Shown: positions 8,041 through 33,841 of the stretch, piece by piece
Position numbering within the stretch: position 1 is the first letter of the stretch
How the letters are laid out: every line of letters starts with the position of its first letter
Notes under the pieces: model-generated
Database searches by the model: none
Told to the model about the DNA's origin: nothing
The model's input: only the letters and a program-made list of their open reading frames with translations
Program-made: the position numbers and the translations under genes
Assembly: GCA_963734545.1 (NCBI GenBank)
Contig: CAVTHO010000003.1
Coordinates: 445,593-509,592, forward strand
Reading direction: 5' to 3'
Source of the DNA: an uncultured Spirochaetota bacterium
GTDB taxonomy: Bacteria; Spirochaetota; Spirochaetia; SZUA-6; Fen-1364
DNA: 64,000 nt

Positions 8041-9492
8041 ATGAACAGGAAACGTTTTTTTTTGTCAGGGACTGCTGCGGGAATGACTCCCGGCAAGGTC
8101 ATAAGACCGGAGTCCATTCACGGTCTCATTGCCACTGCACTGCTTCTGACCCTTCTATTAACCGGCTGCATATCTACACAGCTGACCAAGGATGCCTTTC
8201 TTTCTCCTGAGAAGAAAGGAAGCGTGCGGACAATAGGCGTTGTTCCTGGCGGAGATCCTCGGTTCGCCATGAAAGCATACAAGAACGACCAGCAAGCCAG
8301 GATCGTCGGAACGACTGCTATTGGCGGACTTGCCGGATTTGGATCTGCAGGCACGTTTGCGTTGGCTGGAGCTATGAGCATGGGAGTATTGTTTTTGCCC
8401 CTGGGTGGAGATGCAGCCTCTTCCGCATCCAATTGGGCGCTCGCCGAGCTCTTTCCTGCGATTCTGGCCTGCACGGCCATCGGGGCAGGAGTCGGTCTGG
8501 TCTCTGCCGCAGCAAACTCCGTACCCGCCGGAAGGGCGGAGGAGATCGAAGCAAATGTATTCCCATCGCTTTCTGATTTCCCCTTTCAGGAGAGAATGGT
8601 TGAGCAGATCATAGCGGCCGGAACCGGCAATACTGAATACACCTTTCTGGATTTGCATCGCGCCGATGCACAGGATCATCTCTTCGAAGGAGTAGATGCG
8701 ATGCTCGAGATGAGCGAACTGAACATAGGTCTTCGGGATCTGGGGAACCGTCTTCAGCTCTCCGCAGTCGCAAGCGCGCAGCTGATTGAGAAGGACACGG
8801 GAACCATACTCGCAGAGCGGACTTTCTCGCATGTGTGGAGGACATTCGGCAGGAACAAGCCCGAGGCTGGGGACGAGCCGCTGACGAAGGAAGAAATCGA
8901 CGGCTGCCTTCATGTGCTTTCTGAGGACATAGTCGATACGCTTTGCCTCATGGAGGATTTTCCGTCGCGCTTCATTGATGGAGTTTTGGTTCCGCGAGGT
9001 ATATACACCTTCGCACTGCAGCCCAGGAACCCAAAACCGGAGGGCAGTTTTTTCTGGATGAAATGGAAGTCAGGCACTGTCGATTCTATCCAGCCCAGAC
9101 TGGAGTGGGCGCCGTTTCCCAGTCAACCAGAGTTGAACACCAAAGGACGCCTCACGGAAATCGGGCAGGTGTCATATGACCTGAGGATCTGGAGGTTGGC
9201 CGAAGAAATGCATCACCCCTCGGAGCGGGTGTATGAACGCAAAGGTCTCGTCGATCCCTGGCATACCGTCGAGCGACCGCTCGAGTATGGGAGGACTTAC
9301 TATTGGGCTGTTCGTGCAAGGTTTGTGAGTGAAGGACATGCGGCATTGACTCCATGGACAACATGGCCCGGCTATCTCCCCCTCGTCAGCGAAGAAGGAA
9401 CCGGCACAGGAAGGGTCTCCGGCCAGTACAAATTCTCGACTCCCGCGCTGCCCGTTGAATTGAAATTCTATCGCCCTGGCAGCACACGGTGA
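8041..9492 (+). CDS. Hypothetical lipoprotein (Gly-rich hydrophobic segment; C-terminal beta-sandwich/FN3-like domain)
   Basis: AGGAG RBS; lipobox LLTGC; C-terminal YDLRIWR...RPLEYGRTYYWAVRARF; start may be 8041 or 8083. Confidence 0.7.
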   Translation: MNRKRFFLSGTAAGMTPGKVIRPESIHGLIATALLLTLLLTGCISTQLTKDAFLSPEKKGSVRTIGVVPGGDPRFAMKAYKNDQQARIVGTTAIGGLAGFGSAGTFALAGAMSMGVLFLPLGGDAASSASNWALAELFPAILACTAIGAGVGLVSAAANSVPAGRAEEIEANVFPSLSDFPFQERMVEQIIAAGTGNTEYTFLDLHRADAQDHLFEGVDAMLEMSELNIGLRDLGNRLQLSAVASAQLIEKDTGTILAERTFSHVWRTFGRNKPEAGDEPLTKEEIDGCLHVLSEDIVDTLCLMEDFPSRFIDGVLVPRGIYTFALQPRNPKPEGSFFWMKWKSGTVDSIQPRLEWAPFPSQPELNTKGRLTEIGQVSYDLRIWRLAEEMHHPSERVYERKGLVDPWHTVERPLEYGRTYYWAVRARFVSEGHAALTPWTTWPGYLPLVSEEGTGTGRVSGQYKFSTPALPVELKFYRPGSTR

Positions 9493-9535
9493 ACCGGGAG
9501 TGCTGCAAGAAGTTGAAAGCCTGTCGCGAGTCCCG

Positions 9536-10537
9536 TCATCCACCGTGGAAGATGGCCAGGACCTCCTTCAGCCACACCACAAACTCCGCGGTAGATGAAG
9601 CTGTCGGCATGCCTCCCCTCTCCCAATAGCCGCCAGGCTGTTGATCGCGGACGAGGAATTCGCATGACTTGCGAGCTGCCTCTGCATATTCCTGTTTGCC
9701 CGTAGTCTGATACAGATATGATGACCCAAGCCCCACCTTGCCCGTGCCGTCCGTCAGAAACACATCGGGATGGCAACCGCGGGCGATCTTGAAGATTTTG
9801 CGGGCAGTGCGCAGGTGCCGTTGTTGACCTGTAATGGCGTACAGCTTGGCCAGGAATACGATCCCCGCGCCGAGATAATAATAGTACTGCTGCGGCGCGG
9901 GCGGCTCCAGGAGATAGTAGCGTGGTTCAGCACAACCCGCGGGAACCGCTGTGAGTAGCTTCCCTCCGTCTCCTTTCCGCAGCCATAGCCTCTTGCCCAC
10001 CTCTGGCTGTTGCGCAAGCAGATCGTCGATCCACCGGGCAGCTGCCTTCGCCTCTTTCACGCGGCCAAAGCTAAGACCCACGAAGGAGGTAAAGGCGGTG
10101 CTCAACAGGTCCTGCTCGCTGCTTCCCGATCCATAGGTTGCTTCGGAGCAGTAGCCACCGGTTCCCGGGTGCCTGAACCGCAGCAAGTAGTCCATGCCCG
10201 GGTACGACATGTCGAAGCGCCCCATTGTCTGGGCGGCCCAGACAAACCAGCAACTGGAGTATGTATAGTGGGCTTGATGGAAGCCGGCCCGCTCGGCCTT
10301 GAAATCGCCCTCCGGAGTGAATATCTCGCGTCTTGCCCAATCCAGCAGCCTGCCGGCCTCCTCGAGATGCCCGGTGATCGCCAACCCCTTGGGGACCTTG
10401 TAGTATGTCAGTGGACCCCTGTCCGCGGGATTGATTGACCCATCAGGGTTCTGGATGCTGAGCATCCATTTCGTCGCCGCCTTCACTGCTTTGACATAGC
10501 CCGCAATGTCGGCTGCCGTCATCACTGCCTGTGCCAT
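9536..10537 (-). CDS. Hypothetical alpha/alpha-toroid protein (prenyltransferase/squalene-cyclase QW-like repeats)
   Basis: WMLSIQNPDGS and FLVRDQQPGGYW motifs; 333-aa ORF coupled to the ROK gene stop. Confidence 0.6.
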   Translation of the reverse strand: MAQAVMTAADIAGYVKAVKAATKWMLSIQNPDGSINPADRGPLTYYKVPKGLAITGHLEEAGRLLDWARREIFTPEGDFKAERAGFHQAHYTYSSCWFVWAAQTMGRFDMSYPGMDYLLRFRHPGTGGYCSEATYGSGSSEQDLLSTAFTSFVGLSFGRVKEAKAAARWIDDLLAQQPEVGKRLWLRKGDGGKLLTAVPAGCAEPRYYLLEPPAPQQYYYYLGAGIVFLAKLYAITGQQRHLRTARKIFKIARGCHPDVFLTDGTGKVGLGSSYLYQTTGKQEYAEAARKSCEFLVRDQQPGGYWERGGMPTASSTAEFVVWLKEVLAIFHGG

Positions 10538-11590
10538 TACTCGGCTGCTCCTCTCTGTCCCTCATGTCTCTTGCCTTCCGCCAGCATCTCCCAGGCGATG
10601 CGAGCAGCGCCGATCAGAACAGCGTCGCTGCCGAGCGCAGCCGGAACTATCGGGGTTTGCAGATACTGGAAAAGCTCGTCATGCGCCCTGACGGACTCGC
10701 GCAAAGGCTCGAAAAACAGGTCCCCTGCTTCAGCCAGGCCGCCTCCGACTATGACAATCTCCGGGTCGAGCAAGTGGATGACATTCGATATCCCGATTCC
10801 CAGATACCAGGCCGCCTCGCGAAGAATCCTCCGGCTCACCTCATCTGCTTCTCGCGCGGCCTGGCACACCATTCTCGCGTCAACAGCATCCGGTACCCCG
10901 CCGGCCAGCTCCCTGAGCGACGTATCGGCCCCTTCCTGAATGGCGCGAATGGCCTTTGCCCGGATAGCCGGTCCTGACGATAATTGCTCAAGGCATTCCC
11001 AGCCGGCGCTCCCGTCCCTCCGGTTGCCTGCAAGGATCGCCATGTGCCCCAGGTTTCCCGTCCCGCAGTGCGCGCCGCGGAAAATCCGGCCGTTCAGGAC
11101 CATTCCCATGCCGATCCCTGTCCCCACCGTAATGCACAGTAGATGATCCTTGCCTCTGCCCGGCTCCGTATTCCTTCTCCGCCAGCGCGGCCAGGTCCAC
11201 ATCGTGTCCGATGACCGCCGGCCGGCCGAACTCATCCTCTAGAATCCGGGCGAGAAACACATCCTTCCAGTCGGGGAGGTGGGCGGCGAAACGAACTATG
11301 CCCTCCTCAGGACACACAAAGCCTGGGGACCCTACCCCGAAGCCGCCGATACCGGCCAGTCCCTTTTGAAACGCATCCGCAACCTCCCGGATCGACTGCT
11401 TCATGGTTGCGAGCACATGGGAAGCCCCCAGAGACCCATCGATGAGCCTGCTGGTTCGACTGATGATTCGGCAATGCCTGTCGACAACCGCACATGCGAT
11501 GTGGGTCCCGCCCACATCCACGCCGATCACTTTGTCCCTTCGCTCGGCCTGCATGCGGCGTAAACGCTCATGGAGTGCGGTTCGGCGCAC
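10537..11590 (-). CDS. ROK family sugar kinase (glucokinase-like); one indel
   Basis: IGVDVGGT, GVGSPG, HDVDLAALAE, ITVGTGIGMG, GNLGHM, CLEQLSSG, LDPEIVIVGGG. Confidence 0.88.
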
Positions 11591-11609
11591 GGATTTCAGC
11601 GCACAGGAC

Positions 11610-12074
11610 TTACTGCATCCTGAAGCTCGCCAGGGTTGGTTTCACCAGCCGGGCGAAGTCCAGGTAGGAGAGCTGGATCAGCTCCGAGTGCGAGCATGCG
11701 TTGAAGGCGATTTCGTCATCCTCTGCAAGAGACTTCTCGACGTACACGGGAACGCCGTAGAGATTCCCGAAGGGAGGCATTGCCCCTTCTTCGCAGCCGG
11801 GGAACGTCTTCGCGAAATCATCCTCCGTCGCCAGTTCCACGGAGCCCGCGAGGCTCGCCGTGCGCAGCCGCTCGAGGTCCACGCGGTACTGGGAGGGAAG
11901 CACCGCCATGGTGATCTTCCCGTCGAGCTTGACGATGACAGACTTGGCGAGGTTCCTGCCTTTCACGTGTGCGGATGATGCGACTGCCGAAGATGTGTAC
12001 GCCTTGGAGTGCTGGATGGTCACGTACCTGACCGCGTTCTTGTCCAGATAATCCTTGAGTTTTTGTACTGGCAT
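11610..12074 (-). CDS. YbaK/EbsC family aminoacyl-tRNA deacylase
   Basis: AKSVIVK, FPGCEEGAMPPFG, FNACSHSELI. Confidence 0.9.
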   Translation of the reverse strand: MPVQKLKDYLDKNAVRYVTIQHSKAYTSSAVASSAHVKGRNLAKSVIVKLDGKITMAVLPSQYRVDLERLRTASLAGSVELATEDDFAKTFPGCEEGAMPPFGNLYGVPVYVEKSLAEDDEIAFNACSHSELIQLSYLDFARLVKPTLASFRMQ

Positions 12075-27654: not shown

Positions 27655-28716
27655 TTACAGCTCCGCACCCAGGGGAAGCCCCGCGGTCTCGGGCAGGCCG
27701 AACCGGATGTTCATGTTCTGCACGGCCTGGCCGGAGGCGCCCTTCACGAGGTTGTCGATGACGGAGAAGAGCATCAGGTGCTTTCCTTCCACCTTCCACC
27801 CGATGTCGCACCGGTTGGAGCCCCAGACCTCTCGGGTCTGCGGGATACTGCCGCCCGTCAGGCTGATGAACGGCCTGCCCCCGTAGTATTTCTGAAACAC
27901 TTCCGCAATGCTTCCCGGCCCGGAGTCCGGCGGCTCCCGGGAGAGCTCGACCACGGTGGTCACGGCCATTCCCCGGCGCAGCGGCGCCATGTGCGGCGTG
28001 AACAGGAGCGAGAGGGCTCCGTGCGCCGCCGTCAGCTCCTGGGCGATCTCCGGCGCAGTGCCGATGGCTCGTGCCGGCGTTGTACGCGTTCGCATTCTCC
28101 GAGCGCTCGCAGAAGAGGAGGTCTGCCTTCTCCTTGCGGCCCGCACCCGAGATCCCGGAGATTGCGTTCACGATCACGGTGCCCTTCAGCAGCCCTTCCC
28201 GCGCCAGCGGCAGGAGCGGAAGGAGGGTCGCGGTTGGATAGCAGCCGGGGATCGCGATGATGTCCGCCATCCGGATGGACTCCGTGTGCCATTCGGCAAG
28301 GCCGTAGACCGCCTTGTCACGCAGGTCGGGATTCGGCATGGGCGCGCCATACGCGCTCTGGAACACCGCGGGGTCATGCAGGCGGAAATCCGCGGAAAGG
28401 TCTATGACGACCGTCTTTCCAAAAAGGGGAGCGCACACCTCCGCGGACTTCAGGTGGGGAAGCGCTGAGAAAACCACGTCCAGCGCGCCGGACTCCGCGG
28501 CCCGCACCGCCTCAGCCATGCTCGCGAGCTTTCCACCTGAAGAGCTCATTCTGTCCTCGATGCCGGGGGGAAGTCCGGGGTCCGCAGTCCCGCACCTTCG
28601 TCCCCGGCTGGGAGGAGGAGACGGCCATGATGTCCTGCACCTGCGGGTGCTGCCCGAGGAGGCGGAGGAGGACCATGCCCGTGTATCCTGTTGCGCCCAG
28701 ATACGGCTGTCTTCAA
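27655..28716 (-). CDS. argC: N-acetyl-gamma-glutamyl-phosphate reductase (indels)
   Basis: GATGYTG, FSALPH, IDLSADFR, PGCYPT, SGISGAGR, IDNLVKGASGQAVQNMN. Confidence 0.92.
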
Positions 28717-28727
28717 TCCTTCTCCTT

Positions 28728-29340
28728 TCAGAAACCGGGGCCTTGCGGCCAAAACCGGGGCCCCGAGGGGCAGAACCGGGGCCCGGGGGGCAATTGCCGG
28801 GGCCGCTGGCCAGAACCCCGGGATGCGGGCGCTGACCGCCCGGGTGAGCCGGGCGGGTGCCACACCATTGCGGGCAACGACGAGCACCGTGTCGTCTCCC
28901 GCGATCGTGCCCAGGACCTCCCGGATGCGAAGGTTGTCCAGGGCGGAGGCCACGCTGCTCGCGTGGCCGGGAAGGGTCCGTATCAGACCCAGGCTCCCCG
29001 AGAACTCGATGGACAGGAACCCGCGCATGAAGTCCTGCACGTAGGTGGCGTCGGAACCCGGCTTGACCTCGCCCTCCGAGAGGATGTAGGTATAGCCGCC
29101 GTCAGTGCTGGGCGCCTTGCCGATGCCCAGCCGCTTCAGGTCCCGGGAGAGGGTGGCCTGCGTCACCGCGAATCCTTCACGGCGCAGGAGCTCGGTGAGC
29201 CGCTCCTGGCTGTCCACGGGGGTCTCCGCCACGATCCGGCGGATGGCGGCCAGGCGCGGGTTCCGCGATCCGCCCCGGGGAACCCGCGGCCCTCCCCGGC
29301 TGCGGGCCCGGGCGGTCTTGATAGTATATTTATCCAACAT
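28728..29340 (-). CDS. argR: Arginine repressor (start and stop uncertain)
   Basis: SQERL...TQATLSRDLK, IRTLPGHA, GTIAGDDT. Confidence 0.92.
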
Positions 29341-29360
29341 GACTGCATATATATACAGTC
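29321..29360. promoter_or_regulatory. Tandem ARG boxes at the head of the arg operon
   Basis: AT-rich island; minus strand gacTGTATatatATGCAgtc and tTGGATaaatATACTa resemble the TG(A/C)AT-W4-AT(T/G)CA ArgR box. Confidence 0.75.
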
Positions 29361-29406
29361 AGATTCCTTTCGTGTCAAGCGGGCGCCGGCGGAAAGGTGG
29401 AGGGTC

Positions 29407-29977
29407 GTGAAAGTCTGCGTGTTCTGTTCTTCCAGTGACGCCGTGGACGGCGACATACCTCGCCGCGGCGGCGGAGATGGGGGCCCTGATCGGCGGCGGC
29501 GGGCACACGCTGGTGTTCGGCGGGGGCAGGGTGGGGTTGATGGGCGCCACGGCGCGGGCGGTCCATGAAGCCGGCGGCCGCGTGATCGGCGTCATTCCGA
29601 CATTCATGAACCGGCCCGGGGTGCCCTACCTCGAGTGCGACGAGCTCACCTTCACGAAGGACATGCGGGAGCGCAAGGCTCTCATGATGGAAATGTCGGA
29701 TGCGTTCATTGCCCTTCCCGGAGGGTTCGGGACCCTGGAGGAGATCTCCGAAGTCATCACGCAGAAGCAGTTCGGATTCCTCAAGGCGCCTCTCGTCGCG
29801 GTGAACACGGAGGGCTTTTTCGATCATCTCGCCGCGTTCTTCGAGAAGTTCTACGCGCTGAGCTTCGCCAAGCCGGTCTTCCGCGACACCTGTCCGTTCG
29901 TGGCCACGCCGGCGGACGCCATGGCCTACATCAGGGGCTACACCCCGCCGACCGTGACCAGCAAGTGGTTCACATGA
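29407..29977 (+). CDS. LOG family protein (TIGR00730-like); one indel
   Basis: KVCVFCSSS, GGGRVGLMG, MRERKALM, PGGFGTLEE. Confidence 0.92.
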
Positions 29978-30761
29978 GCCCGCACTCCTCCAGGAGGCGC
30001 CTCATCTCCCGGGCGTTCTTTGCCGCGCTTCCCCTCCAGTGGTTGTTGAAGAAAAGAAGGAGGACCGGCACACGGGCGAGGATCTCCCTTATCCGATCCA
30101 CCCACTCGCGGAGCTCCCCGACACTGTACAGGTAGTCGTAGCGGGACGCGTTGTCTCCCGTCCACCAGTTGGCCGCGTTCCGCCCGTGGAACCGGACGTA
30201 TCCGAAGTCTCCCGTGATCTCGCTTGTCGGCCGGAGGAGACGGGGAAGATCAGGCTCGTCCACGCTCACCAGGCTGACACCCCTCTCACGAAGTCCCTCG
30301 TAGACCTGCTCCCTCAGCCAGTCACTCTTGCGGAACTCGACGGCGAGGGGCAGCCCCGCGAGCTTCTCGCAGAGAGCAGCCAGCCGCGCGCGGGACTCCG
30401 CCGAGTAGGAGAAGCTGTACGGAAACTGGAGAAGGACGGCGGCCAGCCGCCGGGAATCCACCAGGGGCTGTATCCCCGCGCGGAAGGCCGCGACGTCCCT
30501 GTCCCAGCTCTCCCCGATCTCGTGCGTCATGCTGCGGTGCGCCTTCAGCGCGAAGAGAAACCCGTCCGGTGTGGAGGCGACCATCCGTTCCAGCGTGCGC
30601 ACGCTCGGCTGCGCGTAGTAGGAGAAGTTCAGCTCCACGGTCGGGAACTCACGGGAATAGAGGGAGAGGAACTCCTGCTTCGACGTGCCCGGCGGGTACA
30701 CCGGGCCCACCCAGTCCTCGTACGAGTAACCGCTCGTGCCGATCAGCACCCTCGGTGTCAT
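29970..30761 (-). CDS. DUF72 family protein
   Basis: IGTSGYSY, VELNFSYY, LLQFP, AVEFR, YVRFHGRN, YDYLYS, FFNNH. Confidence 0.92.
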   Translation of the reverse strand: MTPRVLIGTSGYSYEDWVGPVYPPGTSKQEFLSLYSREFPTVELNFSYYAQPSVRTLERMVASTPDGFLFALKAHRSMTHEIGESWDRDVAAFRAGIQPLVDSRRLAAVLLQFPYSFSYSAESRARLAALCEKLAGLPLAVEFRKSDWLREQVYEGLRERGVSLVSVDEPDLPRLLRPTSEITGDFGYVRFHGRNAANWWTGDNASRYDYLYSVGELREWVDRIREILARVPVLLLFFNNHWRGSAAKNAREMRRLLEECGLM

Positions 30762-30775
30762 GGTTTCAGGGGCCC

Positions 30776-31738
30776 TTAGTACCCTGCATTCCTGTCCACC
30801 ACGTTATCAAGGGGCTCTCCGCGCACCCACCTGCCGAGATTGGCGAGGAAGACGTCGAACGCTTCCTCCTCGTAGCCGGGGTGCACTCCTCCGTAGTGCG
30901 GCGTGATCACGACGTTCGGCATGCTCCAGAGGGGATGGCTTTTCGGCAGCGGCTCGGGGTCCGTCACGTCAAGACCCGCCCCGCGGACATTCCCCGCGCG
31001 CAGGGCGTCGACGAGCGCCGCGGTGTCCACGGAAGTGCCTCTCCCCGCGTTCAGAAGGAACGCGCCCTGCATGGCGTCCAGCTCTTTCTTTGCCACGAAC
31101 AGGCGCGTGTCCCAGGTGTCGGGAAGGAGGAGCATGATGACCCGGGACCGGGCGAACGCCTCACGCCGCTTCTCCGGCCCCACTACCTCGTCCGCCACGG
31201 GGCTCGCCCCCGGGTGCCGTTTGATGCCGATTACGCGCATGCCAAGGGTGCGTCCCATGGCGGCGCACTGTTCGCCTATGGTGCCCAGGCCGGCGATGCA
31301 CAGTGTCCGGCCCGCCAGGGAAGAGAGGCCCTCGGTGAGCGGAGCGTTGTTCCAGACGCCCTTCTCCTGGGCGAGCACGGCGCGATGGAGATTGCGCGTC
31401 AGCATGAGCGTCATGCCCCAGAGGTGTTCGGCCACGCAATTCCCATGGATATGCACGTTCGTAATGAGGGCCGGGTGCGCCGCGATCTCCGCCATTTTCA
31501 GGAGGGAATCCACTCCCGCGATGTCCGACTGCAGCCACTGAAGGTTGGTGGCGCCGGTCCAGAGCTCACGCGGAAGGCGTGGATAGCAGATCTCGATCCG
31601 GGCAAGGAGACCCGGGTCCTCGGCAAGTCGTGCTTTCTCGACGATCCGAGCGGCAGGAGCCACGGACCTGAGCCGTGTCGCCTGGTCCTCGGTAAGGGCC
31701 TGGGTGAGAAGGATGTAGGGACTGGTTGATCGCTGCAT
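30776..31738 (-). CDS. D-2-hydroxyacid dehydrogenase
   Basis: VAEH, GLGTIG, NAGRG, LDVTDPEPLP, ITPH. Confidence 0.92.
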   Translation of the reverse strand: MQRSTSPYILLTQALTEDQATRLRSVAPAARIVEKARLAEDPGLLARIEICYPRLPRELWTGATNLQWLQSDIAGVDSLLKMAEIAAHPALITNVHIHGNCVAEHLWGMTLMLTRNLHRAVLAQEKGVWNNAPLTEGLSSLAGRTLCIAGLGTIGEQCAAMGRTLGMRVIGIKRHPGASPVADEVVGPEKRREAFARSRVIMLLLPDTWDTRLFVAKKELDAMQGAFLLNAGRGTSVDTAALVDALRAGNVRGAGLDVTDPEPLPKSHPLWSMPNVVITPHYGGVHPGYEEEAFDVFLANLGRWVRGEPLDNVVDRNAGY

Positions 31739-31828
31739 TGCTCAGAAGTGACCGCTGATTGAGACGAAAGTCAAGCCGGTTCGTCCGCCGCATTGACCTG
31801 CGCCGCATACGTCGGAATAATCACCGCA

Positions 31829-32851
31829 ATGACTGCCCTTGAGGGCCCGCGGTTCACACGTGCAACCTCCGACTGGACTCCCGCGGACCGCCTGGGGGCG
31901 CTGCGCTGCCGCCTGGGAATGTTCCGGTCGCCGCATCGCGTGGAGCCGGGACTGTACTCTCTCGGAAGACCCGGCACGGACTCACCGGTCCTCGCGACGG
32001 GAAATTACCGGCTCACCTTCGATCTCCTCAGGACGGGCCTGCGCGGCTGCGATTGCTGGATCCTCGTCCTGGATACGGACGGGATGGACGTTGCCAGCGG
32101 CGCGGCGACCGGCAGGTTCGGCACGGATGAGCTGATCACGAGGATGCTGAAGACGCGCCTCCCGGAAGTGGTGCGCCACCGCGCGGTGATACTGCCGCAG
32201 ATCGGGGCGCGGGCAATAGACGGCGGGGCAGTACGAAGGGACACGGGATTTGACGTCCTTGCCGGCCCTGCGCGAGCGGAGGACATTCCCGGCTATCTCG
32301 CGCGGGGCAGCAGCCCGACCACGGAGATGCGCGCTGTCCGGTTCACGCTGCGGGACCGGCTGGGCGTCAGCCTCATGGAAGTGGGACGGTCGCTGCTGAT
32401 CTTTCCCGTCTTCGCGTTCGGGGCGCTGATCGTCGCGGGACTGGGTCCCGGCGGGGTATCCCTCGAGAGAGCCTGGACCCATGTGTGGCCGCTCTTTGCC
32501 CTGGGGCTGGGCAGCGTCTGCGCCGGCTCTTTCCTCGTGCCGTCCGCCCTTCCCGGGATTCCGTTCGCCGCGTATTCCGCGAAAGGATGGCTGATGGGTG
32601 CCGCGGTGACTGCCCTCTTGCTGCATGGCGCCGGCTTTGCGCGCGGCATGGATCCCTTCCTCACGGCCGCGTGCTACCTGTTCTTCCCCGCGGCCAGCGC
32701 CGCGCTCGCGCTGCGCTTTGCCGGCGCCACTCCGGCGGGATTCTTTCCCGCGGCACGAACCGAGATCCGGCGCGCGTGGCCTTTTTTCGCGGCCGCCGCC
32801 CTGCTGACAGGCGCAGCGCTCGCCTTGTCCCGGCTCGGTCCGTGGGCATGA
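31829..32851 (+). CDS. HgcA-like corrinoid (CdhD-type) membrane protein lacking the cap-helix Cys
   Basis: VEPGLYSLG...SPVLATGNYRLTFD, ILPQIGA, GPARAEDIP, EMRAVRF and C-terminal TM helices match HgcA architecture; GMDVASGAATGRFG stands where HgcA has GINVWCAAGKGTF. Confidence 0.8.
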   Translation: MTALEGPRFTRATSDWTPADRLGALRCRLGMFRSPHRVEPGLYSLGRPGTDSPVLATGNYRLTFDLLRTGLRGCDCWILVLDTDGMDVASGAATGRFGTDELITRMLKTRLPEVVRHRAVILPQIGARAIDGGAVRRDTGFDVLAGPARAEDIPGYLARGSSPTTEMRAVRFTLRDRLGVSLMEVGRSLLIFPVFAFGALIVAGLGPGGVSLERAWTHVWPLFALGLGSVCAGSFLVPSALPGIPFAAYSAKGWLMGAAVTALLLHGAGFARGMDPFLTAACYLFFPAASAALALRFAGATPAGFFPAARTEIRRAWPFFAAAALLTGAALALSRLGPWA

Positions 32852-32893
32852 CGTTGAAAACAGCGTATTATTGAGAACAACGAGGATGCATCC

Positions 32894-33841
32894 GTGAAGA
32901 GAAGAGCTGTCTTCTTCCTGGGCCTTCTGGCCGCGTCTCAACTGGTCGCGCAGGATATATTCGAGCTTGCCTCGCGCGGCGCGCCGGGGCAGATCCCGGC
33001 CGGGCGGGATGCGGGGGCGAGCGTGAACGCGCAGGACGAAAAAGGAAGAACGCCGCTCATGTACGCGGCCAGTGACAACCCGGACGCCGGGATGATCGAT
33101 GCCCTTCTGAAGGCCGGGGCGAGGATCTCGGACAGGGACGGCAAGGGCATGTCCGCTGTCATGTGGGCGGCTTCCAACAACGGCAATCCGAACGTGATCG
33201 CCGCCCTTCTGAAAGCGGGAGCGAAGATCGACGACCGGGACAATTTCGGCCTCACCGCGCTCATGGCCGCGGCCACGGGAAACCAGAATCCCGAGGTGAT
33301 CACGATGCTCGTGAATGCGGGTGCGAGCGTGAAGGGCGGCAATATACTGGGGTGGACTCCGCTCATGCACGCCGTGATCTACAACAGGAACCTGGAGGTG
33401 ATCGCCGCGCTGGTAAAGGCCGGGGCGGGGATCTCGGACAGGGACGAGCAGGGGATCACCCCTCTCATGTGGGCGGCGAGCAAACGGGACCCCGCGGTGG
33501 TGGACCTCCTGATGAAGGAAGGGAGCAGGATCGACGACCGGGACGAAAACGGCCTGACCGCGCTGATGCATGCCGCGCGGGACAACCCTCTGCCCGCTGT
33601 CATCACGGCGCTGCTTGCCGCGGGGGCCGCCATTGACGCGGTGGACGAGAGCGGGCAGAGCGCGCTCATGTGGGCCGTGCAGAGCAACCAGAACGCGGAT
33701 TGCATTTCCGCGCTCCTGGAAGCGGGGGCGGACGGAGCGTTGAAGGACAAGACCGGGAAAACGGCATTCGAGTACGCCAAGGACAATCAGAAGTTGAAAG
33801 GAACAAAAGTGTATTGGCAGCTGAACGACGCGCGATTCTAG
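32894..33841 (+). CDS. Secreted ankyrin-repeat protein
   Basis: Signal peptide; about 8 repeats of G.T(P/A)LM.AA...LL.AGA.I. Confidence 0.92.
   Translation: MKRRAVFFLGLLAASQLVAQDIFELASRGAPGQIPAGRDAGASVNAQDEKGRTPLMYAASDNPDAGMIDALLKAGARISDRDGKGMSAVMWAASNNGNPNVIAALLKAGAKIDDRDNFGLTALMAAATGNQNPEVITMLVNAGASVKGGNILGWTPLMHAVIYNRNLEVIAALVKAGAGISDRDEQGITPLMWAASKRDPAVVDLLMKEGSRIDDRDENGLTALMHAARDNPLPAVITALLAAGAAIDAVDESGQSALMWAVQSNQNADCISALLEAGADGALKDKTGKTAFEYAKDNQKLKGTKVYWQLNDARF

Follow-up and report, generated by a model that had tools for sequence, protein, structure and literature searches.

The window (the whole 64,000-nucleotide stretch of Spirochaetota DNA analysed here) contains, at the ancestral and syntenic hgcA locus of its family, an hgcA paralogue that has lost its hgcB partner and the characteristic cap-helix residues of HgcA, and that is nevertheless under purifying selection. 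We consider it likely that the gene product is a membrane corrinoid protein that descends from HgcA, has been maintained, works without HgcB and does not methylate mercury; its cofactor binding and its failure to methylate are predicted from the retained and the lost parts of the protein, respectively. This reading builds on direct observations: paralogy, synteny, the missing hgcB, the succession in which the motif residues disappeared, the signs of selection and the preserved fold.

On the plus strand, an uninterrupted ORF for an HgcA homologue occupies positions 31793–32851 (352 aa if counted from a TTG, with no stop inside), and its translation bears out a preliminary description of the DNA in which HgcA landmarks were seen in order: VEPGLY, SPVLATGNYRLTFD, ILPQIGA, GPARAEDIP, EMRAVRFTLRDRL and a C-terminal RFAGATP...TEIRR tail. 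The same description gave the gene a promoter of its own as well as the TTG start, which cannot hold together. The promoter-like site is indeed present (the 1.6-kb region has two such sites, where shuffled sequences average 0.2), and it is found also in the two closest genomes, G014 and G002, the -35 hexamer CATTGACC being invariant and the -10 reading GGAATAAT in G014 and GGAATACT in G002. However, the supposed TTG start codon is made of the first three bases of the -35 hexamer TTGACC, so the two features are mutually exclusive and the likely start is the ATG at 31829. This ATG lies 8 nt past the -10 hexamer, is kept in G014, and is where a database protein of 340 aa with 100% identity (P0002) begins. 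All 23 of the listed sequencing runs were of DNA, so none provided RNA with the gene (the best contained 0.32 of the sampled words). The gene and its upstream site are therefore given as follows:

31829..32851, plus strand: coding sequence of the orphan HgcA paralogue in its most likely form (340 aa and a stop codon; the ORF as called mechanically starts at 31793)
31793..31821, plus strand: promoter-like site TTGACC-17-AATAAT (10 of 12 positions match)

The neighbouring genes are these:

30776..31738, minus strand: gene for a D-2-hydroxyacid dehydrogenase (2-Hacid_dh_C, 5.8e-46), divergently transcribed, the conserved upstream neighbour and a marker of the ancestral locus
29970..30761, minus strand: DUF72 gene (DUF72, 2.4e-64), the second conserved upstream neighbour
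32894..33841, plus strand: gene for an ankyrin-repeat protein (Ank_2, 4.7e-46), downstream, starting 43 nt after the orphan gene

The dehydrogenase gene adjoins the hgcA copy in eight genomes of the genus (G014, G002, G007, G006, G008, G015, G003 and G020) and in G024, from a sister genus; DUF72 is syntenic in the same nine, and in a further sister-genus genome, G023, it lies near the gene. At this lineage's gene, both G024 and G023 have (A/G)INVWCAAGK plus hgcB. On the downstream side of the window gene there is, as had been pointed out from the sequence, an ankyrin protein and not a ferredoxin: no hgcB or 2x[4Fe-4S] ferredoxin gene follows the orphan, and there is no CxxCxxCxxxC ORF at the locus. 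The ankyrin gene has a promoter-like site of its own (32843–32871), is found in G014 (89% identical) and is absent from G002; it is not a conserved partner. Nor did the compared loci yield any conserved neighbour gene that might hint at a new function. The locus of G007 has an MFS transporter gene upstream and a SAM-methyltransferase gene downstream, neither of which occurs in the window.

The source genome (a metagenome assembly in 10 contigs, 89% complete and with 4.9% contamination) has a canonical hgcA on contig 6 (399 bits, NVWCAAGK), with a 107-aa hgcB 11 nt downstream; no other protein encoded in this genome exceeds the HgcB family cut-off. The suggestion that the window gene is a paralogue was thus well founded. 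The two HgcA proteins are only 40% identical, and a protein search of this genome found no further hgcA-type genes. Most genomes of the genus likewise have a second, distant hgcAB operon elsewhere. In three (G010, 89% complete; G020, 78%; G004, 70%) only the orphan type was found, with no canonical copy and no HgcB above the cut-off, although the absence of the canonical copy from these genomes is unproven because they are incomplete. The association with hgcB is sharply divided: hgcB is beside none of the 11 fetched genus copies of the orphan type and beside all 19 loci of the other kind (18 of them with a readable canonical cap). Among 80 metagenome loci, hgcB accompanied 46/46 canonical-cap genes with at least 300 nt of downstream sequence but only 4/19 of those with non-canonical caps, all four being mild K to E or R variants that retain Trp and Cys; in the other 15, the downstream sequence was too short for hgcB to be judged.

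In trees built with the cap columns removed and without a CFeSP outgroup (a FastTree analysis of 290 rows agreed), all the degenerate caps fell into one clade of 56 rows (SH-aLRT 89), adjoining the canonical hgcAB of sister genera and lying inside a clade of 67 rows (SH-aLRT 99) that also contains canonical hgcAB genes; the window protein nests there. The other copy of the genus belongs to a distant clade (support 100). Support for the 56-row clade is moderate, and many forks in the tree are unresolved. The degradation of the cap in the genus is stepwise, first Lys, then Trp, then Cys, with minimum numbers of changes on the tree of 3, 5 and 6, respectively. The Cys has thus been replaced on six or more occasions, nearly every time with Ser (the site has C 89, S 15, T 2 and A 2). 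Cys-less clades, which the preliminary description had suggested looking for, do exist. The terminal branch of the window protein is about twice as long as those of its neighbours (0.19 vs 0.10).

Within the coding sequence, we distinguish the following parts:

31925..32317, plus strand: corrinoid-binding domain with the CdhD / CFeSP C-terminal-domain fold (residues 45–175, 352-aa numbering)
32081..32122, plus strand: rewritten cap helix GMDVASGAATGRFG (residues 97–110, 352-aa numbering; canonical HgcA has G(V/I)NVWCAAGKGTFG)
32096..32098, plus strand: Ser102 codon AGC at the position of the Co-ligating Cys, one base away from TGC
32360..32833, plus strand: membrane domain of five hydrophobic helices (residues about 190–347 from hydropathy; modelled helices H174–339, 340-aa numbering)

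The accepted cap-helix motifs take the form N(V/I)WC(A/S)(A/G/S)GK, with a Co-ligating Cys (PMC10087281, in the text available). The Co–S(Cys) bond in HgcA has been confirmed by spectroscopy (PMC11588087, available text), and C93A and C93T mutants of HgcA lost all mercury methylation (PMC7305189, available text). A rewritten cap helix had been reported for the window protein at about 32081–32122, and this is what we find: the eight motif positions read DVASGAAT, with Asn, Trp, Cys and Lys all replaced, so that the HgcA motif is absent. Since the codon is AGC and the frame contains no internal stop, neither selenocysteine nor recoding of a stop codon can account for the residue at the Cys site. 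Ser102 aligns with a Thr of the CFeSP structure 2h9a. No relative in the 17-row subclade of the window protein has the Trp or Lys of the cap, and the subclade has a cap pattern of its own (T106 in 86%, G107 and F109 in 100%). The closest relatives (62–79% identical) still carry the Cys, and so its loss in the window is recent and polymorphic among strains. This was followed on assembled contigs from sequencing runs, which contained no exact-strain match and in three of which (X1, X2 and X4) the gene was partly uncovered. A contig of 1323 nt from a different study (run X3), 94% identical and with 74 differences from the window, keeps the A at 32096; a 112-nt contig from run X1 has T there (= Cys), and comes from another strain, since it differs at eight positions and agrees with the Cys-bearing relatives. 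The Ser of the window is a strain-level variant, and Cys and Ser are polymorphic among close strains; one further protein, P0012, carries Ser at this position independently.

The homology with HgcA far exceeds what chance would give. The protein shares with HgcA (NCBIfam HgcA_corrinoid, NF040863) a CFeSP-like corrinoid domain, a C-terminal membrane domain of about five transmembrane helices and a place inside the HgcA tree, and differs from it in the missing cap residues, in having no hgcB in its operon, in two changes (T310A, T316G) to the conserved FTG..T..T loop in its last membrane segment and in scoring 271.2 bits (E 1.2e-80; 270.9 bits in the genome search), below the 275-bit equivalog cut-off. 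The Pfam CdhD profile matches residues 45–168 (9e-16, 58 bits), corresponding to the last ~125 of its 387 positions, and the CFeSP chains 2h9a and 4c1n match the corrinoid domain at E 2e-16. An AF2 model (pLDDT 94.1) has long membrane helices and retains the cap as a helix (residues 88–94 of the 340-aa form, 100–106 of the 352-aa form); among its Foldseek matches the HgcAB model 9a0b_A ranks first, aligning over the full length (334 columns, E 5e-17), and CFeSP chains come next at E 2e-8 to 6e-6. Beyond the cap, most of the residues that are invariant in HgcA remain. Counting from the Cys, the two Thr that match T60 and T66, described as B12 contacts by Cooper et al., are kept as well. Extra changes of the window protein at otherwise conserved positions (A70G, N99D, L137I, G141A, V160A and R259A) are a reason for thinking that the window allele may be sliding further than its clade.

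Selection was estimated by pairwise NG86 dN/dS, without a codon model on the tree and with high dS for many pairs; the more distant genus members (G007, G006, G015, G003 and G008) were saturated and gave no estimate. For the whole gene, dN/dS was 0.299 between the window and G014 (bootstrap 0.21–0.41) and 0.267 between the window and G002 (0.20–0.35), and median values were 0.24 both for the window subclade (20/21 pairs usable) and for the Ser clade (36/36 pairs), compared with 0.16 in the K-less clade and 0.19–0.20 in canonical clades. Values of 0.27–0.30 for the window and a median of 0.24 for the clades indicate that the gene is under purifying selection and not decaying, in agreement with the earlier opinion that its changes were not random. 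Constraint is strongest in the membrane domain (0.21–0.23 in the window pairs, vs 0.38–0.43 for the corrinoid domain). On the window branch itself, the corrinoid domain gave 0.54, vs 0.32 and 0.29 in Cys-keeping sisters (from few sites, without a separate confidence interval), and the bootstrap upper bound for the whole gene was 0.53. None of the 11 fetched genus copies (48–79% identity) has an interrupted frame.

How might such a gene have arisen? The ancestral locus would have been a canonical hgcAB, as it still is in sister genera. In this genus hgcB was deleted, and most of its genomes have the second hgcAB operon elsewhere, which may have been acquired by the genus or lost from its sisters. 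On our reading, residues serving Co–S chemistry were then freed from constraint, disappearing in the order Lys, Trp, Cys (the last repeatedly to Ser), and purifying selection kept the fold, the threonines that contact the corrinoid and, most strongly, the membrane domain. The corrinoid would still be bound without a thiolate ligand, with a small hydroxyl residue under the cobalt like the Thr of CFeSP, and the protein would have a membrane-associated role needing neither HgcB nor a Co–S bond. As both the ferredoxin partner gene and the cobalt-binding Cys have gone, the orphan probably has a function different from methylmercury synthesis, and the reported inactivity of the C93A and C93T mutants leads us to predict that mercury methylation has been lost. 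It is conceivable, and we put it forward tentatively, that the clade without hgcB constitutes a functional family in its own right, made up of corrinoid proteins anchored in the membrane and in a CFeSP-like, thiolate-free state, with Ser or Thr under the cobalt and no dedicated ferredoxin.

Several other explanations have to be set against that of a maintained, non-methylating HgcA derivative. The gene could be redundant and in early decay, having become purposeless after the loss of hgcB and the takeover by the second hgcAB, and being intact by chance. The raised dN/dS of the corrinoid domain on the window branch, the long terminal branch, the extra substitutions at conserved sites, and amino-acid identities to G014 (79%) and G002 (71%) that are below those of neighbouring genes (82–96%) could all be read in this way, as could the broken-looking matches reported in G009 (split over two frames) and G034 (one TGA). 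We think it unlikely in view of the whole-gene dN/dS and its upper bounds, pairwise and on the window branch, the still lower values for the membrane domain, the open frames throughout the fetched genus copies, the persistence of the Ser clade under constraint, the conserved promoter and the cap pattern peculiar to the subclade. Decidedly unlikely, too, is that the protein continues to act as a mercury methylase or as a functional subunit of the HgcA type, borrowing the HgcB of the canonical copy, with Ser or another group replacing the thiolate. The abolition of methylation by C93A and C93T in the model organism (PMC7305189, available text) argues against it, as do the additional loss of Trp and Lys and the three incomplete genomes in which, as far as their sequence goes, only the orphan type is present; it has on its side the retention of the full HgcA fold and membrane domain, the presence of a canonical HgcB in the same genome, the Cys of the closest relatives, and the hgcB genes kept with mild caps at four metagenome loci.

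A sequencing or assembly error, in the Ser codon or in the entire cap reading, might be imagined for a fragmented and slightly contaminated metagenome assembly in which a single A-to-T change would give Cys, especially as the short X1 contig has that T. The preliminary description had named this possibility, but the independent X3 contig keeps the Ser codon, the X1 contig is attributable to another strain, no relative in the subclade has the Trp or Lys, and P0012 arrived at Ser independently, making an error very improbable. That the gene encodes an ordinary Wood–Ljungdahl corrinoid iron–sulfur protein subunit (CdhE/AcsC or CdhD) and no relative of HgcA is hardly credible at all, even though Pfam sees only CdhD, Ser102 aligns with the CFeSP Thr, and some relatives are labelled 'acetyl-CoA decarbonylase/synthase complex subunit gamma' in sources. 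The CFeSP model NF003195 gives 85.7 bits (cut-off 306) and matches only at model positions 307–445 of 450, far below the score with the HgcA model, and the CdhD match is similarly partial. The large subunit (AcsC/CdhE; 2h9a, 4c1n, 4djd) has in common with the window protein the corrinoid fold, the cap helix and a hydroxyl residue at the Cys site of HgcA, but has N-terminal 4Fe-4S and TIM-barrel domains (profile searches found neither in the window protein), a small-subunit partner and a Wood–Ljungdahl role, with no membrane domain. The five-helix membrane domain, the nesting in the HgcA tree, the Foldseek result and the restriction of the genome to two hgcA-type genes all place the window protein with HgcA, as had been proposed from the landmarks.

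Among described groups, the 'hgcA-like' genes of surveys (Hg-MATE moderate or low stringency; marine Nitrospina-type) come closest. As far as the available texts of PMC10087281 and PMC4646819 go, these match HgcA HMMs but lack the six accepted cap motifs, some have no hgcB on their contigs, and their capacity for methylation is not established; they are handled as a filtering class or discarded, as they are in 10.1101/2020.04.01.018762. The window protein is similarly an HgcA homologue without an accepted motif or hgcB, but here such sequences form a single clade without hgcB, in which residues were lost in order, Cys gave way to Ser repeatedly, purifying selection has been measured and a canonical hgcAB is co-resident. 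The fused HgcAB-like proteins (NF043039; Pyrococcus furiosus type), reported in the same partly available sources to be non-methylating in culture, also belong to an HgcA-related lineage, but the window protein has no ferredoxin domain and no motif, and reaches only 161.7 bits with their model (cut-off 285), at model positions 12–182 of 350. In the literature covered (without most subscription journals or supplements), we found no paper that describes, for Spirochaetota, an additional hgcA lineage lacking hgcB, or an HgcA clade in which Cys has become Ser, and the text of PMC10083202 does not mention paralogs, duplication, the cap helix or Spirochaet-.

Genes of this kind can mislead surveys, as the preliminary description anticipated: relatives without Trp or Cys score 279–301 bits on the NCBI HgcA model (cut-off 275), orphan-type genes from wetland, soil and sediment metagenomes score 195–376 bits, and NCBI already gives the name HgcA to some Cys-less relatives, one with Ser at the Cys position among them. 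Counts of Spirochaetota 'mercury methylators' can therefore be inflated, or doubled for each two-copy genome, a risk that is avoided by examining both the cap helix and the presence of hgcB.

Mercury methylation is generally viewed as incidental to HgcAB, for which we know of no established native cellular role. In this context, the orphan lineage is a natural dissection of HgcA, in which the ferredoxin and the cobalt thiolate have been shed but purifying selection has preserved the corrinoid fold and, most of all, the membrane domain. It thereby reveals which parts of HgcA are needed beyond Co–S chemistry, and supplies candidates for expression and spectroscopy. If the clade should prove to be a distinct family, the strongly conserved five-helix domain would carry out what HgcA originally did in the cell (for example, membrane traffic linked to corrinoids or methyl groups), and the Cys-bearing form would methylate mercury only as a side activity that can be dispensed with.

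The reading frame of the HgcA homologue (31793-32851, forward strand) has no internal stops, and every HgcA landmark listed in the preliminary description is present in its translation. That description had also given the gene a TTG start at 31793 and a promoter of its own; these are mutually exclusive, because that TTG is part of the -35 hexamer. The promoter-like site stands (10 of its 12 positions match, and shuffles average 0.2 sites), with its hexamers kept in both closest genomes (G014 and G002); the TTG start probably does not. The database form of the protein (340 aa) begins at ATG 31829, 8 nt past the -10 hexamer, and if translation starts there, as we take it to do, the leader would be very short or absent. 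With the start so corrected, the observation is confirmed, including the rewriting of the cap helix (the HgcA motif NVWCAAGK, whose Cys ligates cobalt):

31793-31821, forward strand: promoter-like site TTGACC-17-AATAAT
32081-32122, forward strand: cap helix, residues 97-110, reading GMDVASGAATGRFG
32096-32098, forward strand: codon AGC (Ser102) at the position of the cobalt-ligating Cys
32843-32871: promoter-like site of the ankyrin gene, from a promoter scan
32894-33841, forward strand: ankyrin-repeat gene, 315 aa, 43 nt downstream of the HgcA homologue

The ankyrin protein has a hydrophobic N-terminus resembling a signal peptide; its gene is found in G014 but missing from G002, and is therefore not a partner of the HgcA homologue. 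As to the Ser codon, the exact window strain was not found among the sequencing runs searched. Another study yielded a 1323-nt contig that differs from the window at 74 positions yet keeps the A at 32096; in a 112-nt contig of a third study the base is T, and with seven further differences that contig resembles Cys-bearing relatives. Since independent contigs carry either base, the Ser/Cys difference is variation that occurs naturally between close strains.

In Pfam the protein matches CdhD alone, and of that profile just the C-terminal part (58 bits, residues 45-168); the NCBIfam model HgcA_corrinoid gives 271.2 bits, slightly below its cut-off of 275. Two other identities were rejected, the family models for CFeSP (corrinoid iron-sulfur protein) and for fused HgcAB-like proteins scoring 85.7 bits (cut-off 306) and 161.7 bits (cut-off 285), respectively. 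Five hydrophobic segments follow residue 190. In an AlphaFold2 model (84 homologues; pLDDT 94.1, pTM 0.87) the cap is still helical, and the structure most like it is 9a0b_A, a published integrative model of HgcAB (E 5e-17, 334 columns), followed by five CFeSP chains. Ser102 aligns with a Thr of the CFeSP 2h9a (residue 374, counted from the printed alignment); in CFeSP this Thr lies under the cobalt, which is not known to have a protein ligand there. Beyond the cap, the window's subclade retains the majority of HgcA-invariant positions; the losses are W101, A103, G105 and K106, together with T310 and T316 of the last membrane loop. Two threonines (T69 and T75) align with those of the canonical copy and, matched by offset from the Cys, correspond to the HgcA B12 contacts T60 and T66 used by Cooper et al.

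The same genome (G000) has a second, canonical HgcA, 40% identical, so that the gene is indeed a paralogue. This copy, on contig 6 (399 bits, cap VNVWCAAGK), has 11 nt downstream a ferredoxin of 107 aa with two clusters and a terminal CC, the sole protein of this genome to pass the HgcB family cut-off; the window gene, as originally described, has none beside it, its downstream neighbour being the ankyrin gene. Before the canonical operon (locus L001, contig 6, 159017-162973) come genes for a MarR-family regulator and for a SPASM-domain protein, and an LMW-phosphatase/ArsC-like gene lies just past hgcB on the opposite strand.

Matches occur in 19 of the 20 other genomes of the genus, most of which, by bit score, hold both kinds. 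Among the loci compared, hgcB is directly downstream in all 19 of the distant kind (cap canonical in all 18 readable) and in none of the 11 of the window's kind from this genus, none of which has a canonical cap. The latter kind occupies a fixed chromosomal place, with DUF72 and 2-hydroxyacid dehydrogenase genes upstream in eight genomes of the genus and in a sister-genus genome (G024); in G024 and in G023, the gene of the window lineage has (A/G)INVWCAAGK and hgcB. The window gene thus represents the copy at a conserved, syntenic locus, hgcB having been lost from it within this genus. Three genomes (G010, 89% complete; G020, 78%; G004, 70%) have the orphan type only and no HgcB above the cut-off, which argues weakly against HgcB being borrowed in trans.

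ArgR (arginine repressor) and LOG/lysine-decarboxylase-like genes (window 28546-29977), upstream of DUF72, are syntenic across the genus. In G007 (L017), an MFS transporter gene (8679-9971, forward strand) immediately precedes the orphan hgcA in the same orientation, and a SAM-dependent methyltransferase gene (11024-11857, reverse strand; Methyltransf_31, 1.2e-37) lies downstream in convergent orientation. In L006, L017, L019, L020 and L043, mechanical ORFs (520-678 aa) enter the hgcA frame from upstream; that of L017 has a Pfam domain in its C-terminal hgcA part only. Matches in G009 (C16:262489-263503) and G034 (C3:351330-351984) are split over two frames or contain an internal TGA and look like broken copies of the window lineage, unlike the intact window gene. 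A canonical-type hgcA with hgcB downstream (L039, G016:C301) has one in-frame TAG, leaving ORFs of 224 and 88 aa, and G014, the closest relative, has a second, partial orphan copy at a contig end (L048, contig 22, 1-310), which covers the C-terminal third and shares 74% identity with residues 237-340.

For the wider family, the best 120 of 464 matches from a search of 5.8 billion proteins were used, and a representative library gave 1352 matches at E<=0.001. The cap is canonical in 184 of 290 aligned sequences, the remainder forming graded classes. Trees built without the cap columns (FastTree, and IQ-TREE in a quick search on 108 rows) agree in placing all degenerate caps in one 56-row clade (SH-aLRT 89) within a 67-row clade (99) that also contains the sister genera's canonical hgcAB, and in placing the genus's other copy far away in its own clade (100). 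On both, Lys went first (as in NVWCAAGAG and NVWCAAAEG), Trp next (MNVACG.xTG.F, the 17-row subclade that includes the window gene, support 99) and Cys last; on the IQ-TREE tree the minima are three, five and six changes. Clades of Cys-less homologues, which the preliminary description had suggested looking for, do exist inside the HgcA tree, Cys having changed at least six times. The Cys site among tree rows is C in 89, S in 15, T in two and A in two, and the window protein and P0012 lost Cys independently within a subclade otherwise keeping it. Isolated cap variants (P0199, P0263, P0254, P0231, P0092), one bearing Arg in place of the Cys and several bearing Glu in place of the Lys, lie in otherwise canonical regions of the HgcA tree. 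Among 80 metagenome loci, hgcB follows 46 of 46 canonical caps with at least 300 nt downstream (eight had too little sequence) and four of 19 non-canonical ones (seven had too little), all four keeping Trp and Cys; because the rows share ancestry, the contrast is descriptive and not a test.

Pairwise dN/dS (NG86; bootstrap ranges in brackets) for the window gene is 0.299 (0.21-0.41) against G014, with 0.23 in the membrane and 0.43 in the corrinoid domain, and 0.267 (0.20-0.35) against G002, with 0.21 and 0.38. Between these same genomes the values are 0.14-0.15 for the canonical copy, 0.16-0.17 for the dehydrogenase and 0.06-0.10 for DUF72. Clade medians are 0.24 in the window subclade (20 of 21 pairs usable), 0.16 in the K-less clade (41 of 66), 0.24 in the Ser clade (36 of 36), 0.20 in the sister canonical clade (6 of 6) and 0.19 for the genus's canonical copy (50 of 66). 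The hgcB-less genes are therefore under purifying selection, relaxed only mildly. A three-taxon split gives the window branch 0.30 (0.18-0.53), and 0.54 in the corrinoid domain against 0.32 and 0.29 on Cys-keeping branches; constraint on that domain may be somewhat looser in the window allele.

Survey papers grade or discard 'hgcA-like' matches without accepted motifs (PMC10087281; 10.1101/2020.04.01.018762; PMC4646819), and PMC4646819 mentions a single read with Cys replaced. In full-text searches of article texts, mostly from non-subscription journals, no description of the clade, the hgcB-loss link or the selection regime was found. Under the NCBI HgcA model (cut-off 275), the K-less form of G007 scores 376 bits, G014 301, the Trp-Ser form of G012 279, the window 271 and a Ser-clade member (G010) 195; P0077, with Ser at the ligand site, carries the NCBI name HgcA. 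The anticipated false positives in hgcA surveys do occur.

According to reported mutagenesis, C93A and C93T abolish methylation and C93H retains part (PMC7305189); a Co-S bond has been observed by XAS, with SAM as methyl donor (PMC11588087). Because of the two abolishing substitutions and the Co-S bond, a protein without Cys, Trp, Lys and HgcB would be very unlikely to methylate mercury. The original proposal of a maintained, non-methylating paralogue is supported, and the product preserved by selection would best be seen as a membrane protein that binds a corrinoid and acts with no thiolate ligand.
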